Shown: positions 865 through 38,685, counted from the stretch's first letter. The stretch: DNA of 64,000 nt from Candidatus Eiseniibacteriota bacterium (GCA_043815815.1 JBDRIO010000029.1:13650-77649); one strand, 5' to 3'. Made by a program: numbers and translations. Notes: generated from the letters alone by a model not told the origin.

Positions 865-2397
865 ATGTTTGCGAACCGCGCCCGGCATCGCTGTCTTCCA
901 GTGCCCGCTCTCGCTCTTCTTGCCCTGTGCCCGGTCGGAGCCGGCACGTTCTCGGCCCGAGCATCCGAGTACCAGCGCGACACGGCTCCGGTCACGTTCC
1001 AGGTGACCGCTCCCACCACGACGCCCCCAGGCGATCCGGTCTACATCGCGGGCGACTTCCAGGGCTGGGACCCCGGCGCTCCAGCCTATCAGCTCACCGA
1101 CCTCGGAGGGCTGCTCTACGAGATCACGCTCGACCTGACAGTCGGAGGCACGATTCAGTTCAAGTTTACGCGCGGGACCTGGGGCAAGGTGGAAAAGGGG
1201 CCGAACGGGGAGGAGATCGCCAACCGGACCCACGCGGTCACCGTTGCTGAGACCCTCGAGCTGACGGTGGCGAACTGGGCCGACCTGCCGGTCAGCACGA
1301 TCACAGGTGACGTGACGACTCACACGGTTCCGGGGTTCTTGAGCGGACGCCGCGTGTGGGTCTACCTGCCGCCGGGCTACCACGTGCGGGCGGACCAGCG
1401 CTATCCCGTGCTCTACATGCTCGACGGACAGAACCTCTTCGACCAGGCCACGAGCTACGCCGGCGAGTGGGAGGTAGACGAGACCTGCGAGAGTCTCATT
1501 CCCGCGGGTTTGATGTCCCCGATCATCGTCGTCGGCGTGGACAACGGAGGTCTCAGCCGCATCTACGAGTACACCCCCTGGTACGATCCGGGCTACGGTA
1601 ATGGGGGTGGCGGCGAGGCCCACCTCCAGGAGCTCATCACAGTCCTCATGCCCTGGGTCGACGCGAACTACCGCACGCTCACCGGGCCACGCGCCACGGG
1701 ACTTGCGGGCTCATCGCTCGGCGGCCTCATGTCGCTGTATGCCGCCTACGCTCATCCCGAGGTGTTCGGTCTCCCTGGAGCTCTGTCCCCGTCTATCTGG
1801 TGGAACGACGACGAACTGCTCAGCTACGCCGGAGGACAGCCAAAGCCGGCCTCGACCGTCTACATGGACATGGGGACGATCGAGTCAGGATCGATGGTGG
1901 ACGAGGACGGGAACGGCGTCGACGACTACATCGATGACCTGCGCGCCATGCGCGACATCATGGTCGGGCAGGGGTTCGTCCTTGATGAGGACCTGATGGT
2001 GGTCGAGGACGAGGGCGGCGTGCACAACGAGTGGCACTGGGCGCAGAGGTTCCCGGGGACTCTCCAGTTCCTGTTCCCGCCGCCGCCGGAGACAGGAGTA
2101 CAGACGAACGCGACGCCGGGACTCGCGATGCTCCGCCCCAACGCGCCGAACCCGTTCAGCGACCGGACCACGCTGCGCTTCGACCTGCCGGATCCCGTCG
2201 ACGTGAGGCTCATGGTCTACGACGTGGCCGGCCGACGGGTACGCGAGCTCACCACGGGACGGTTGCCGGCCGGCCCGCATGAGGTGGTCTGGGACGGACG
2301 GGACGAGCGCGGAGTCCGCGTGGCCAGTGGGATCTACCTGTACCGGATCCACGCGGGGGAGCTCGTCGAGCAGCGGCGGATGGTCGTGCTGAAGTAG
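865..2397 (+). CDS. Secreted esterase (putative-esterase / esterase D / enterochelin-esterase fold) with N-terminal starch/glycogen-binding-type CBM and C-terminal T9SS-type sorting domain
   Basis: Signal peptide MFANRARHRCLPVPALALLALCPVGAG. CBM20/25/48-like region VTFQVTAPTTTPPGDPVYIAGDFQGWDPG...FKFTRGTWGKVE. Esterase core WVYLPPGY...YPVLYMLDGQNLF...GSSLGGLMSLYAAYAHPEVFG. CTD NAPNPFSDRTTLRFDLP...VYDVAGRRVREL...SGIYLYRIHAGE...MVVLK. Confidence 0.8.
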   Translation: MFANRARHRCLPVPALALLALCPVGAGTFSARASEYQRDTAPVTFQVTAPTTTPPGDPVYIAGDFQGWDPGAPAYQLTDLGGLLYEITLDLTVGGTIQFKFTRGTWGKVEKGPNGEEIANRTHAVTVAETLELTVANWADLPVSTITGDVTTHTVPGFLSGRRVWVYLPPGYHVRADQRYPVLYMLDGQNLFDQATSYAGEWEVDETCESLIPAGLMSPIIVVGVDNGGLSRIYEYTPWYDPGYGNGGGGEAHLQELITVLMPWVDANYRTLTGPRATGLAGSSLGGLMSLYAAYAHPEVFGLPGALSPSIWWNDDELLSYAGGQPKPASTVYMDMGTIESGSMVDEDGNGVDDYIDDLRAMRDIMVGQGFVLDEDLMVVEDEGGVHNEWHWAQRFPGTLQFLFPPPPETGVQTNATPGLAMLRPNAPNPFSDRTTLRFDLPDPVDVRLMVYDVAGRRVRELTTGRLPAGPHEVVWDGRDERGVRVASGIYLYRIHAGELVEQRRMVVLK

Positions 2398-2458: not shown

Positions 2459-2580
2459 CCGCGCCTGGTCGACGAATCGAATGGCGTCCGTCGCGGGGAG
2501 CCAACATTCGCGAGCCCGGTCCGCTGCGGCCGGACTCGTGCCTGTTTGCGGGGCCTGGAGGGGGCCGTCCACGATTAACC

Positions 2581-2887
2581 TTGACCTGGACGAGACGGGC
2601 GACTATGCTGTCAGCTAGCAGATGCGACCACGTTGGTATGGTGACATATCCGGAATCTCTAAGGAGGGGCCTGGCGCGCGAGCCGGTCCCTTTTTGCGTT
2701 TCAAGTGCGCCATGAGGCGCCAGCGGGTGTGAAGCCATACCGGCGGTCGGTGAGGACGCCACCTGCAGGGGCGGACAGGCCCCGTCATTGAGGATGTCGG
2801 CGGATCGGGCAAACCGGTTCCCGACAAGACGATCGCAGGTGCAGGGGTCCATCCCCACACCGCGAGAACAAGAGAGGTAGTGTCATA
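2581..2887 (+). promoter_or_regulatory. cspA-1 promoter (TTGACC-17-TATGCT) plus ~270-nt conserved 5' leader with attenuator-like hairpin (2666-2696)
   Basis: -35 TTGACC 2581-2586, 17-nt spacer, -10 TATGCT 2604-2609. Conserved block GCGACCACGTTGGTATGGTGACATATCCGGAATCTCTAAGGAGGGGCCTGGCGCGCGAGCCGGTCCCTTTTTG is shared with the two other csp leaders. Hairpin GGGGCC...GGTCCC followed by a T5 tract. Confidence 0.6.
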
Positions 2888-3106
2888 GTGGGTACGACCG
2901 GAACCGTGAAGTGGTTCAACGACAGCAAGGGCTTCGGATTCATCTCGCTCGAGGACGGGTCGAAGGACGTCTTCGTCCATCACTCGGCGATTCAGAGTGC
3001 TGACGAGTACAAGTCGCTTACCGAAGGCGATCACGTGCAGTTCGACGTCGTCGACGGCGAGAAGGGCCCTGCGGCAGAGAACGTGACGAAGGTCACGGCA
3101 GAGTAG
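2888..3106 (+). CDS. cspA: Cold-shock protein (CspA family, S1-like cold-shock domain)
   Basis: 72 aa; [12 protein letters not shown] and [11 protein letters not shown] motifs; GTG start. Confidence 0.95.
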
Positions 3107-3139
3107 CCGACCTTCTTGAGCTGCAAGCTAGCTTAGATC

Positions 3140-12284: not shown

Positions 12285-12474
12285 CGGGCGGGGCACCATG
12301 GGCGCCTGCGCCGACGCTGCGGGCTGCGGGCCCTGCTACTCGACCGTGAGCCACACGTCCCGGGGAGCCATCAAAGCCCTGTACAGCAGGCATTTCTGAG
12401 CGGCCGCCCGAGCTGTTCTCGGCCGCCCCGAGCCCTCCGGGAGCTGCGCGGCCGGCCATGCGCTGCGATTAGGT

Positions 12475-12781
12475 TTGACTCAGCGGCACCGGGCGGTTAT
12501 GATATTACCCAGCAGAGGCGACCACGTCGGTATGGTGACATATCCGAAGACTCCTTAAGAGGGACCTGGCGCACACGCCGGGCCCTTTTTGTATGTCTGA
12601 GGGCGCCATGAGGCGCCCGAGAGTGTGAAGCGGTACAGACGATCGGTGGTGGCGTCACCTGTGGGGACCGTTTGTCCCCGTTATTGAGGAAGTCGGCGGT
12701 CCGGATGGTCCGGCCCCGACAGGACCGTCGTCGGAGTGAGGGGTTCGCCCTGTCCGATGACAACACGAGAGGTAGTACACA
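12475..12781 (+). promoter_or_regulatory. cspA-2 promoter (TTGACT-17-TATGAT) plus conserved ~270-nt leader with attenuator-like hairpin (12561-12591)
   Basis: Same architecture and conserved box (GCGACCACGTCGGTATGGTGACATATCCGAAGACTCCTTAAGAGGGACCTGGCGC...CCCTTTTTG) as the cspA-1 and cspA-3 leaders. Confidence 0.6.
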
Positions 12782-12991
12782 GTGAGCACGACCGGAACAG
12801 TGAAGTGGTTCAACGACACCAAGGGCTTCGGATTCATCTCCCTTGAGGACGGGTCGAAGGACGTCTTCGTCCACCATTCGGCGATCCAGAGTGCCGACGA
12901 GTTCAAGACGCTGAACGAAGGCGATCGCGTGCAGTTCGACGTCGTCCAGGGCGAGAAGGGCCCGGCGGCGGAGAACGTCACGAAGATCTAA
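12782..12991 (+). CDS. cspA: Cold-shock protein (CspA family)
   Basis: 69 aa; [62 protein letters not shown]. Confidence 0.95.
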
Positions 12992-36529: not shown

Positions 36530-36836
36530 TTGACACACTGGGCGGCACTGGCTACACTTTCACTTGAGCGGAGGCAGCCACGTCGGTATGCGTTATGACC
36601 GAAGACTCTGAGAAGGGACCTGGCGCGCGAGCCGGTCCCTCTTTGTTTGTCCGCCGTCATGGGCAGTACCGGAGCAGAAGGACGCACTGGTGATCGGCAG
36701 TGGCGAGACCCGCAGGGGCGGAGTGCCGTCCCGAGGGAGCAGTAGTCGGAAGGCACGGCAGAACCGGCCTCCGACAGTGGCAGTGCCGGCAAGGGCGGAA
36801 CATCCGCTCACCGGCGGAACGAGAGGGGTTGTAGAA
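36530..36836 (+). promoter_or_regulatory. cspA-3 promoter (TTGACA-17-TACACT) plus conserved ~270-nt leader with attenuator-like hairpin (36613-36648)
   Basis: Conserved box GCAGCCACGTCGGTATGCGTTATGACCGAAGACTCTGAGAAGGGACCTGGCGCGCGAGCCGGTCCCTCTTTGTTTG. Confidence 0.6.
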
Positions 36837-37052
36837 GTGAGCACGACCGGAAGAGTGAAGTGGTTCAACGATGCAAAGGGCTTCGGGTTCATCACGCCCG
36901 ACGACGGCTCGAAGGATGTGTTCGTGCACTTCTCCGCCATCCAGAGCGGTGGCGATTTCAAGACGCTCGCTGAGGGCGACCACGTGCAGTTCGAGGTCGT
37001 TCAGGGCGAGAAGGGTCCGGCCGCGGAGAACGTGACCAAGCTCGACGACTAG
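36837..37052 (+). CDS. cspA: Cold-shock protein (CspA family)
   Basis: [74 protein letters not shown] start with GAGAGGGG RBS. The ORF track's 36690 start lies in the leader. Confidence 0.9.
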
Positions 37053-37089
37053 CGCCGCTTCCACTCGCGATAAGAAGCGATTGCTGTCA

Positions 37090-37155: not shown

Positions 37156-38685
37156 ATGGATGCACAGCTCGGCACGATCCCATCGGCCCGCGCGCTCGCT
37201 GTCCTGGTCGCGCTCGTCGCGCTCATCGCCCCGTCGTACGGGGCGAGAGCCGACATCGTCTCCGGTCCGGGTCGCGGCGCTCGTGGCGCGGATCCCGCGG
37301 CTTCGGCTCTCTCCGGGGCGGGTCCGTCCGGGCCCCGCGCTGCCAGGGTCGTGGGGGCCGATCTCTCGTTCGTCCCTGAGCTCCAGTCGCTCGGCGCCGA
37401 GTTCCGCGTGGGAGGGGAGCCGGTCGATCCTCTCGAGGCCTTCCACGACCACGGCCACCGACTCGTGCGGCTCCGCTTGTGGCACACACCCGACGAGCCC
37501 TGGCAGGGGCTCGACGCCACGGTGGCGCACGCTGTCGCCGCGAAGCTCGCCGGCCACGAGATCATGCTCGACATCCACTACTCGGACACGTGGGCCGACC
37601 CGGCGCATCAGACGAAGCCCGCGGCGTGGCAGTCGCTCGCGTTCCCTGCTCTCGTCGACTCGGTCTACGCGTACACGAACGCGGTGATCAGGCGCTTCCG
37701 TGACGAGGGCGTTGTTCCTTCGTACGTCCAGATCGGCAACGAGATCAGCAGCGGACTCCTGTGGAGTGACGGACGAGTGGGCGGCGCGTGGGACACTCCC
37801 GGGCAGTGGGACAAGCTCGGGACGCTTCTGTCGACGGGTGCCGCCGCGGTCCGGGACAGCCTCGACCCGTCGGAACGCCCGCTCATCGTCATCCACGTCG
37901 ACAACGGCGGCAGCAACGGTCTCTGTCGCTGGTTCTTCGACAACGTGGTGGCGGAGGGAGTCGACTTCGACATCATCGCGGTTTCGTTCTACCCGTGGTG
38001 GCACGGGACGCTCCCGGAACTCGAGTACAACCTGCACGACCTCGCGGCGACCTACGGGAAGGGCCTCATGGTCGTCGAGACGGCCTACCCGTGGACGCTC
38101 GACTGGTACGACGGCGTCCACAACTTCGTGGGTTCCGCAGACCAGCTCCACCCGGGCTATCCGGCGTCGCCGGAAGGCCAGCTGGCGTTCCTCGAGGATC
38201 TTCTCGATGTCGTCGAGGGCGTTCCGGGAGATCTCGGATTGGGCGTGATCTACTGGGAGCCCGGTTTCCTCTCGGTGCCTGGAGGCCCCGGCAACCCCTA
38301 CGAGAACCTGACGCTCTTCGACTTCGACGGCGATGCGTTGCCCGGCCTCTCGTACGCGCTGTTCTGGGGCACCGACGTGCCGGGCGGCGACGACGGCCAC
38401 GGCCTGGCGCCTCTGCTCTCTCCCGGCGTTCCGAACCCGTTCGCGTTCTCGACGAGTCTGGCGTTCACTGTCCCGTCGGGCGGAGCCGAAGTGGACGTCG
38501 GAGTGTACGACGTCTCCGGGAGGCAGGTGGCGAGTCTGGCGAGCGGCCATCGTGCAGAGGGAGTGCACCGGCTTGCGTGGTCGGGAAGGGCAGACGGCGG
38601 AAGCGATTTGTCCACCGGGGTCTACTTCTGCAGAGCGGAGGTCGGCGGCCGTTCGGAGATGACGAAACTCGTGCTCATCAGGTAG
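37156..38685 (+). CDS. Secreted GH53 endo-beta-1,4-galactanase (arabinogalactanase) with T9SS-type C-terminal domain
   Basis: Signal peptide; GH53 blocks GADLSFVPELQSLG, YVQIGNEISSG, IYWEPGF. CTD VPNPFAFSTSLAFTVPSGGAEVDVGVYDVSGRQVASL...VYFCRAEVGGRSEMTKLVLIR. Confidence 0.85.
   Translation: MDAQLGTIPSARALAVLVALVALIAPSYGARADIVSGPGRGARGADPAASALSGAGPSGPRAARVVGADLSFVPELQSLGAEFRVGGEPVDPLEAFHDHGHRLVRLRLWHTPDEPWQGLDATVAHAVAAKLAGHEIMLDIHYSDTWADPAHQTKPAAWQSLAFPALVDSVYAYTNAVIRRFRDEGVVPSYVQIGNEISSGLLWSDGRVGGAWDTPGQWDKLGTLLSTGAAAVRDSLDPSERPLIVIHVDNGGSNGLCRWFFDNVVAEGVDFDIIAVSFYPWWHGTLPELEYNLHDLAATYGKGLMVVETAYPWTLDWYDGVHNFVGSADQLHPGYPASPEGQLAFLEDLLDVVEGVPGDLGLGVIYWEPGFLSVPGGPGNPYENLTLFDFDGDALPGLSYALFWGTDVPGGDDGHGLAPLLSPGVPNPFAFSTSLAFTVPSGGAEVDVGVYDVSGRQVASLASGHRAEGVHRLAWSGRADGGSDLSTGVYFCRAEVGGRSEMTKLVLIR

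Follow-up and report, generated by a model that had tools for sequence, protein, structure and literature searches.

Cold-shock proteins (Csp) are abundant RNA chaperones, and how the leaders of their mRNAs control their synthesis is understood for a handful of model bacteria only, namely E. coli, Listeria and Staphylococcus. Where csp genes are known to be autoregulated, the regulation is negative. The leader of E. coli cspA has been implicated both in autoregulation by Csp and in temperature-dependent folding; a hairpin followed by a U-run is, to our knowledge, not one of its features. This leader (RF01766 in Rfam) is long (about 160 nt) and structured, and it carries a conserved 5'-proximal box that is common to the paralogs. 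In S. aureus, the 5'UTR of the cspA mRNA forms a hairpin with a U-rich right arm, to which CspA itself binds. CspA thereby melts the hairpin, and it antagonizes RNase III, of which this hairpin is a target; no role in termination has been proposed for it (PMC5815144). The paralogous S. aureus genes cspB and cspC share a lineage-restricted leader with alternative pairings, which adopts an open form and a form in which the ribosome-binding site is locked, and csp leaders, with lengths of 110-160 nt, are described as lacking sequence similarity between taxa (PMC8034633). As to the proteins themselves, the preferred site of B. subtilis CspB is GTCTTTG/T (PMC1904285), one report describes members of the Csp family as lowering termination at intrinsic terminators (PMC1636342), and cspD has been discussed in the context of antitermination (PMC9765468).

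The leader described here extends csp leader control to an uncultured phylum and to a different and much longer architecture. Compared with the known csp leaders, it is nearly twice as long, combines a hairpin and U-run (P2) with a helix that closes the 5' end (P0), and shows no visible lock on the ribosome-binding site; P2 is apparently more widely shared than the rest of the leader. The window in which it was found is a stretch of 64,000 nt (about 66% G+C) from a Candidatus Eiseniibacteriota bacterium. Region 2581-2887 of this window is most likely the promoter and the ~271-nt cis-regulatory leader RNA of a cold-shock protein mRNA, and one of three paralogous copies (Table 1). The whole window contains exactly three csp genes, all of them ORFs with a GTG start, and the leader lies upstream of every one. 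The initial annotation had stated that the three paralogs have the same upstream design, and we can confirm this, as the three upstream regions are alignable from the promoter to the start codon, over about 290 nt, with a mean column identity of 78%. The middle part of the leader in copy 3 belongs to a diverged subfamily. Protein look-ups returned no record for the exact sequences of the csp1 and csp2 products. On one side csp1 is flanked by the gene for an esterase/FlgD_ig protein, on the other by that for a B12-binding radical SAM DUF4070 protein, and the csp gene of L143, one of the related loci, lies between neighbors of the same kinds.

Table 1. Coordinates of the csp1 promoter, of the predicted elements of its leader, and of the two further copies in the window
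Feature	Position	Strand	Remarks
CGATT motif	2572..2576	+	few nt 5' of the -35 hexamer; kept in the majority of orthologous promoters (alignment); candidate UP-like element or factor site
csp1 promoter	2581..2609	+	sigma-70-like, TTGACC-17-TATGCT; hexamers kept in orthologs
Inferred csp1 leader, 271 nt	2617..2887	+	first base is the A of AGCAG; ends directly 5' of GTG
P0, 5' strand	2618..2626	+	GCAG..GCG; pairs with 2757-2766, closes the 5' domain
25-nt box	2628..2652	+	3' two-thirds form P1
P1 hairpin	2633..2653	+	8 bp, one bulged U; GUGA tetraloop 2641-2644; 98.5% of cells paired
P2 hairpin	2662..2695	+	core GGGGCC-U-GGC / GCC-GGUCCC, loop 2676-2681, U-run 2691-2695; base extended by AGGAG:UUUU pairs
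P3 hairpin	2707..2720	+	GCGCC-AUGA-GGCGC; deleted in the L112-L121 clade
Region complementary to box/P1	2725..2745	+	20 bp, -33.5 kcal/mol in copy 1; alternative long-range partner in a leader subfamily
P0, 3' strand	2757..2766	+	CGC-CAC-CUGC; just 5' of P5
P5 hairpin	2768..2783	+	GGGGC-GGACAG-GCCCC; 93% paired, compensatory changes
P6 long hairpin	2796..2825	+	GUCGG...CCGAC, inner stem; both-side changes in 7/12 pairs
P7 long hairpin	2833..2865	+	directly 5' of the Shine-Dalgarno region; both-side changes in 11/12 pairs
Purine-rich ribosome-binding region	2866..2887	+	75% identity; unpaired in consensus folds
Shine-Dalgarno GAGAGG	2872-2877	+	10 nt before GTG
csp1 coding sequence	2888..3106	+	72 aa, cold-shock domain; GTG start
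Copy 2	12475..12781	+	leader from ~12511, box 12522-12546, P2 and U-run ~12557-12589; ahead of csp2
csp2 promoter	12475-12503	+	sigma-70-like, TTGACT-17-TATGAT
csp2 coding sequence	12782-12991	+	GTG start
Copy 3	36530..36836	+	leader from ~36567, P2 and U-run ~36611-36643; ahead of csp3
csp3 promoter	36530-36558	+	sigma-70-like, TTGACA-17-TACACT
Copy 3 partial box	36578	+	first 13 nt of the box
csp3 coding sequence	36837-37055	+	GTG start

The promoter and the length of the leader also agree with what had been annotated. Exactly one sigma-70-like site is found ahead of each csp gene, compared with 0.1-0.2 per region in shuffled sequences, and the near-consensus hexamers with their 17-nt spacer are present in all three copies and kept in the orthologs. 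Across the 33 leaders of our alignment (see below), the spacer and the discriminator are essentially random, with 36% and 30% identity, respectively, and conservation resumes abruptly at AGCAG, 7-8 nt past the -10 hexamer (7 nt in copies 1 and 2, and 8 nt in copy 3). Because conservation resumes so abruptly after a freely varying discriminator, this boundary argues for a transcription start at or beside position 2617 (position 2 of the nhmmer profile) and for a leader of 271 nt, where about 270 nt had been proposed.

Relatives of the leader were collected in two ways. Genomes, with each species represented by one of them, were scanned for the 12 nt with which the box begins, located 254-284 nt 5' of AARTGGTTYAA, and this yielded 20 loci; 18 are true homologs, and the metagenome-assembled genomes (MAGs) from which they come bear the labels Candidatus Eisenbacteria, Candidatus Effluviviaceae or "uncultured bacterium". 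The other two, L004 (Omnitrophica) and L005 (Calditrichales), are chance matches. A pattern scan of viral contigs gave a single match, likewise attributable to chance. Diverged leaders were added by a protein search for close Csp relatives, followed by a search of their contigs with an nhmmer profile; about 120 close relatives are known from the protein search, and leaders were drawn from the contigs of a subset of them. The resulting non-redundant set (alignment A3) comprises 33 leaders, i.e. the three of the window and 30 further copies upstream of csp genes from Candidatus Eisenbacteria/Effluviviacota and from unclassified MAGs. In 80 csp loci from a metagenome protein scan (protein identity of 77% or less) nhmmer detected no copy of the leader, even at E < 100 and with the filters switched off, and no leader homology is detectable at csp genes of other lineages that are 80-84% identical (L132-L139, labelled Acidobacteria, and L150-L153). 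Since csp loci of the other sampled lineages show no detectable homology, the leader family looks restricted, within the loci sampled, to Candidatus Eisenbacteria/Effluviviacota-like bacteria.

The mean pairwise identity across the 33 leaders, which we used as the measure of conservation, amounts to 0.85 in the first 47 nt of the leader, 0.78 in P2 with its U-run, 0.75 in the Shine-Dalgarno region, 0.63 in the middle of the leader and 0.60 in P5-P7. The csp coding sequence reaches 0.81 overall and 0.67 at third codon positions, so that the 5' part of the leader is more constrained at the nucleotide level than the synonymous sites of csp (0.85 vs 0.67). Csp itself ranks among the best-conserved proteins of bacteria.

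The first 47 nt are thus the most conserved part of the locus, and the segment to which they belong ends with a hairpin and a U-tail, as many small RNAs do. It could be envisaged that the promoter-proximal ~80 nt, ended by P2, constitute a trans-acting small RNA, and that the csp mRNA is its read-through product. GACCAC near the 5' end of this segment is complementary to GUGGUU, which is part of the KWFN codons of csp, and RNAalifold suggests that the two pair. However, this pairing amounts to 6 bp only and carries no covariation information, because both of its sides had been fixed by the search pattern, and we rejected it. Moreover, the element is always joined to a csp gene, P0 ties its 5' end to the downstream leader, and neither the window nor the loci searched contain a copy that stands on its own. 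We regard a small RNA of this kind as very improbable.

The structure model of the leader was built from RNAalifold, folds of the individual sequences, and pair counting. For the whole structure, 87.4% of the cells of alignment A3 are standard pairs, compared with 39-49% in controls in which the pairing partners were slid by 1-3 columns. An analysis of covariation, which the initial annotation had put forward as a check, favors the model as judged by pair counting across the 33 leaders: the observed structure exceeds 500 of 500 shuffles on every covariation measure, and the number of pairs changed on both sides (27, against 17.2 +/- 2.6 in shuffles) was reached in 0 of the 500. The minimum free energy (MFE) of the copy 1 leader is -133.7 kcal/mol (z = -4.25 against shuffles). 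In the model, P0 encloses a 5' domain with P1, P2 and P3, after which come P5-P7 and the open ribosome-binding region. The covariation support comes from P0, P3 and P5-P7, whereas P1 and P2 are nearly invariant yet pair-compatible, and their support consists of this compatibility and of one-sided changes, not of strong covariation. P0, whose family form is GCAG..GGCG with CGCC-AC-CUGC, has a mean duplex energy of -15.4 kcal/mol, compared with -9.3 +/- 3.4 kcal/mol in shuffles. Its compensatory changes occurred independently in L143 (GCAGUUC/GAACUGC), in L017 and L019 (GCAGUC/GGCUGC), in L003 (GCGGGCG/CGCCUGC), and in copy 3 and L016 (GCGG/CCGC). At the other end of the leader, the ribosome-binding region (GAGAACAAGAGAGGUAG) is conserved and stays unpaired in the consensus folds.

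In one group of leaders, the L112-L121 clade, about 50 nt that lie between two GGCGCC repeats are missing. The deletion has taken away P3 as well as the stretch to which the box is complementary, but P0, P1, P2, P5-P7 and the ribosome-binding region are retained. P3 is dispensable, and because the deletion spares P0-P1-P2 and the 3' hairpins, these form the conserved core of the family. That we are dealing with a genuine, conserved and structured csp leader, specific to one clade and not represented in Rfam, is well supported. The leader clearly qualifies as a candidate for a new family of Rfam, and it could possibly serve as a marker for csp regulation in metagenomes.

A comparison of the whole window with Rfam revealed no family at the gathering threshold, and the hits to 2500-2960 at E < 10 are noise only. 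In particular, the cspA thermoregulator (RF01766), for which a search had been recommended, reaches 28.8 bits where the threshold is 78, and the match (2780-3138) is due to the coding sequence only and does not include 2617-2780. The analogy between the 25-nt box and the cold box of E. coli cspA holds by position but not by sequence: the E. coli-type cold box, the consensus of which we take to be TGACGTACAGA, has no match with up to two mismatches in the three leaders of the window. What the two systems have in common is a long structured leader of a csp mRNA, with a conserved 5'-proximal box common to paralogs. The Eisenbacteria leader, with 271 nt instead of about 160 nt, differs by its hairpin and U-run and by a ribosome-binding site that is not visibly sequestered, and there is no homology between the two.

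The box had been annotated as a conserved 25-nt element of the leaders. It is complete in copies 1 and 2, while copy 3 shares its first 13 nt (CCACGTCGGTATG) and then diverges. The loop of P1 is of the GNRA type (GUGA, GCAA or GCGA) in 31 of the 33 leaders and UUCG in L140; copy 3 (win3) has an altered P1 with a different, irregular loop, and two clades have acquired an insertion precisely opposite the bulged U of P1. These swaps of the P1 tetraloop and the insertions opposite the bulge indicate that the box is a hairpin and not a purely linear element.

In copy 1, the box can also engage in a long-range helix with the complementary region further downstream. The two pairings are mutually exclusive (-5.3 kcal/mol for P1 and -33.5 kcal/mol for the long-range helix), and the MFE structure takes the long-range helix in place of P1. 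According to this folding model, copy 1 could switch between P1 and the long-range helix. The two pairings would be the candidate pair for a translational RNA thermoswitch of the type described for E. coli cspA, L. monocytogenes cspA and S. aureus cspB/C, in which mutually exclusive folds, favored at different temperatures, expose or occlude the ribosome-binding site. Alternative folds of the 5'UTR are indeed what published csp thermoswitches use (PMC8034633), and in the copy-3 subfamily there are compensatory changes that fit the long-range helix. However, the strength of this helix depends on the leader: it is high in the csp1-type subfamily and intermediate in others, copy 3, L016, L102 and L125 can form the helix weakly or not at all, and in the L112 clade its partner is deleted. 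Since it is weak, absent or deleted in many leaders, we regard it as a feature of a subfamily and hence not as the core mechanism of the family. In addition, the consensus folds leave the Shine-Dalgarno region free of pairing, and in a test for sequestration of the ribosome-binding site the best and sole candidate for an anti-Shine-Dalgarno strand performed no better than chance (mean z = -0.94). CUCU at 2657-2660 would provide only 4 bp and shows no CUCU:AGAG covariation, and pairing of the Shine-Dalgarno sequence with the 3' strand of P0, seen in the MFE structure of copy 1, is not general among the leaders; both candidates were rejected. Compared with the S. aureus cspB/cspC leaders of 110-160 nt, with their open and locked forms (PMC8034633), the Eisenbacteria leader of about 270 nt has no conserved pairing that locks the ribosome-binding site, and its alternative pairing is limited to a subfamily. 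A translational thermoswitch as the mechanism of this family seems to us decidedly improbable.

The hairpin pattern of P2, GGRCCTGGCGC-N4-GCCGGNCCCTNTTTG, has exactly three matches (at 2667, 12562 and 36616), where 0 are expected by chance, and the three copies of the window fold with -19 to -22 kcal/mol. The hairpin is predicted in all 33 leaders (-16 to -26 kcal/mol); across the family its core reads GGGACC-(bulged U)-GGC / GCC-GGUCCC, and in 32 of the 33 four to six U come next, with L012 as the exception (a poor U-run, UUGUG). The initial annotation had described a GGGACC/GGTCCC stem followed by T4-T5. The stem and the U-run are there, but the details had to be revised: the run is T5 in copies 1 and 2 and TCTTT in copy 3, and the actual stem is GGGRCC-(bulged U)-GGC / GCC-GGNCCC, extended by AGGAG:UUUU(U). 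Of the cells of P2, 90% are paired, and most of the changes are one-sided (G-C to G-U and A-U to G-U); two-sided changes are found in L111 and L109 (C-G to U-A), and in L140 the stem has been rebuilt (GACCUGG/CCAGGUC). P2 lies 46-79 nt past the inferred start and about 190 nt before the GTG, and it is kept in the L112-L121 clade despite the deletion of ~50 nt downstream of it. The 3' terminators proper of csp2 and csp3 have longer stems, with U-tails no better than that of P2. We rejected an ORF starting from CTG after the Shine-Dalgarno-like AAGGAGG inside P2, as on reading the sequences its frame differs between copies 1 and 2. The view of the inverted repeat as a DNA operator was likewise rejected: because the spacing of the half-sites varies between lineages, an RNA hairpin fits better.

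A GC-rich stem-loop followed by a U-run and sited between the inferred start and csp has the features of an intrinsic terminator. The frequent hairpins with the arm of P2 and a U-run in csp leaders of other lineages, which are otherwise without detectable homology (see below), also speak for this reading. The hairpin and the U-run are both kept while their surroundings change, which suggests that termination, or at least a function that needs both elements, has been under selection; this is the best argument that we can offer, and attenuation is the best available mechanism that we infer. P2 would act as a leaky intrinsic terminator some 75-80 nt into the transcript, and read-through would set the output of csp. 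Its 3' arm and tail (GGUCCCUUUUUG; GGUCUUUUUU in L140) are pyrimidine/U-rich and might present the kind of single-stranded site that Csp binds, as they resemble both the preferred site of B. subtilis CspB (PMC1904285) and the U-rich arm at which CspA melts the hairpin of its own leader in S. aureus (PMC5815144). Because the 3' arm and tail are of the type preferred by Csp, the protein, temperature, or both would be expected to alter the formation of P2 and thereby bring about autoregulation; the consequence of Csp binding at P2 may be more read-through, altered processing, or both. Once the polymerase has read through, P0 would sequester the 5' end and may stabilize the full-length mRNA, while the ribosome-binding site would stay open. 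Taken as a whole, a Csp- or temperature-responsive attenuator combined with an autoregulatory leader is the best explanation of the data, and we give it an about even chance of being correct. If P2 is a Csp-responsive attenuator, it would offer a simple, testable system for autoregulation of an RNA chaperone at the level of transcription. A terminator that is melted by Csp would mean positive feedback, which counts against the attenuator view.

Like the classical attenuators based on intrinsic terminators, the Eisenbacteria leader has a promoter-proximal GC-rich hairpin and a U-run ahead of the coding sequence, but unlike them it has no statistically supported antiterminator, no leader peptide and no aptamer recognized by Rfam. 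The only candidate antiterminator, in which the box pairs with the 5' arm of P2, forms in all folds of the nascent RNA; the duplex is no stronger than those obtained with shuffled boxes (z = -0.6), and P2 is more stable by about 12.7 kcal/mol. The 6-codon upstream ORF claimed to be common to leaders 1 and 2 exists in these two copies only, and it corresponds to the loop of P3 and not to a coding unit. Its ATG (2712-2714), which sits in this AUGA loop, is present in 25 of the 33 leaders, and the ORFs that start there are 6-102 codons long. Attenuation by a leader peptide is ruled out by this variable length, by the loss of the ATG, by the lack of a Shine-Dalgarno sequence, and by the deletion of the region in the L112-L121 clade.

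The U-run of P2 is predicted to pair in part with the upstream AGGAG, and for this reason it may be kept as a strand of a helix and not as a termination signal. P2 would then be no terminator but a hairpin for Csp binding and RNase processing, similar to that of S. aureus cspA: its U-rich right arm would be the Csp site, melting would alter the processing or stability of the mRNA and produce negative feedback, and P0 together with the other hairpins would set the half-life. The lengthening of the stem by the U-run is in keeping with this possibility, as are the sequestration of the 5' end by P0, which is typical of stability elements, and the stem shared between lineages, GGACC-U-GG / CCGGUCC, which would be expected of a site of specific recognition more than of a terminator of the ordinary kind. 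Furthermore, P2 and the S. aureus hairpin are both stem-loops in the gene's own leader with a right arm that is U-rich, and CspA, which binds this arm, antagonizes RNase III (PMC5815144). However, a hairpin with an immediate U-run is also the signature of an intrinsic terminator, and it recurs in unrelated csp leaders, where the runs after P2-like hairpins reach U8. The staphylococcal leader has no sequence homology to that of Eisenbacteria, and while the former is a target of RNase III with no termination proposed, in the latter the U-run follows a GC-rich stem directly. A processing hairpin remains, in our judgment, a possible but rather doubtful explanation.

The most promising lead is the wider distribution of P2. 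It is tempting to speculate, although we consider it unlikely, that P2, with its RGGACC/GGUCCY outer stem, its bulged U, an inner stem that varies and the U-run, represents an ancient, cross-phylum, Csp-responsive attenuator of csp and rpsU-csp leaders in several poorly studied phyla, and that the Eisenbacteria leader is its elaborated version with an added 5' domain. If this were true, there would be a widespread, uncatalogued class of protein-dependent riboregulators acting on one of the most abundant RNA chaperones. The csp leaders of other lineages often contain, 110-290 nt before the start, a hairpin with the outer arm of P2, a variable inner stem and a U-run (e.g. in L021, L023, L027, L038, L042, L045, L046, L132 and L150). 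Terminator-like hairpins were found upstream of csp genes of other lineages in 23 of 70 cases on the sense strand, compared with 5 of 70 on the antisense strand, and the GGACCYGR arm is present upstream in 11 of 80 such loci, where 2.6 are expected. A covariance model of the 5' module (R1) finds only weak matches in other lineages (E-values from 1e-3 to 1e-2), and all of them are P2-like hairpins.

The leader of the csp genes travels along with the expansion of the csp paralogs in related genomes, as it does in the window. In the L125-L128 loci two csp genes form a tandem pair, each preceded by its own diverged copy of the leader; likewise, L011 and L014 lie on a single contig, as do L015 and L018. 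A natural deletion variant was found in the clade L112-L121, in which about 50 nt between two GGCGCC repeats have been lost, removing hairpin P3 and the pairing partner of the conserved box; P0, the helix that closes the 5' domain, the box-derived hairpin P1, the terminator-like P2, hairpins P5-P7 and the Shine-Dalgarno sequence are nonetheless retained, which makes this leader useful as a natural minimal version.

The only leader feature that csp loci of other lineages have in common with this family is a P2-like hairpin followed by a U-run, with an outer GGACC/GGUCC stem, often a bulged U, and a variable inner stem. Many of these leaders also contain a GUCGG...CCGAC hairpin near the Shine-Dalgarno sequence, and this pattern may be a trace of a deeper, wider family. 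At the 5' end, the csp leader starts of L028 (UAGCAGGCGCACCAG) and L026 (GGACCACGAGCG) resemble that of the Eisenbacteria family, and this sequence likeness hints at remote homology; profile searches picked up no 5'-end homology in non-Eisenbacteria csp leaders such as these. In L045, and apparently likewise in L046, a short ORF separates the P2-like hairpin from csp. Judged by eye from its translation (MEVKVDETERLESVLKKFRRQITKAGLFQDMKRKRFYESP...), the L045 ORF is a putative homolog of ribosomal protein S21 (rpsU); if this is true, the P2-like hairpin would head an rpsU-csp operon.

Upstream of the promoter, the CGATT motif is kept near the -35 hexamer in most orthologous csp promoters (L002, L006, L007, L010, L154 and others), whereas its flanking sequence is not conserved; the motif may serve as an UP-like element or as half of a transcription-factor site. 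Among close csp relatives, several gene calls in the databases run to 89-104 aa, which we take to be N-terminal over-extension into the leader. The FlgD_ig-like domain of the secreted-type enzymes that adjoin csp genes of the window recurs beside csp in related contigs.

Coordinates of csp genes, leader elements and neighbouring features
Feature	Location	Remark
csp1, csp2, csp3	window 2888-3106, 12782-12991, 36837-37055	GTG start codon in 3/3
CGATT motif	window 2572-2576, ~12466-12470	few nt upstream of -35 hexamer
Esterase (secreted type)	window 865-2397	FlgD_ig-like domain at end
GH53 galactanase (secreted type)	window 37156-38685	FlgD_ig-like domain at end
FlgD_ig-like domain	L143/L144 184-435	beside csp
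Tandem csp pair	L125-L128, at 801 and 1418	
Deletion leader	e.g. L112:582-803	
P2-like hairpin, other lineages	L021, L023, L027, L038, L042, L045, L046, L132-L139, L150-L153	110-290 nt upstream of csp
Leader start	L028 ~990-1060	
Leader start	L026 ~690-760	
Short ORF	L045 ~960-1200
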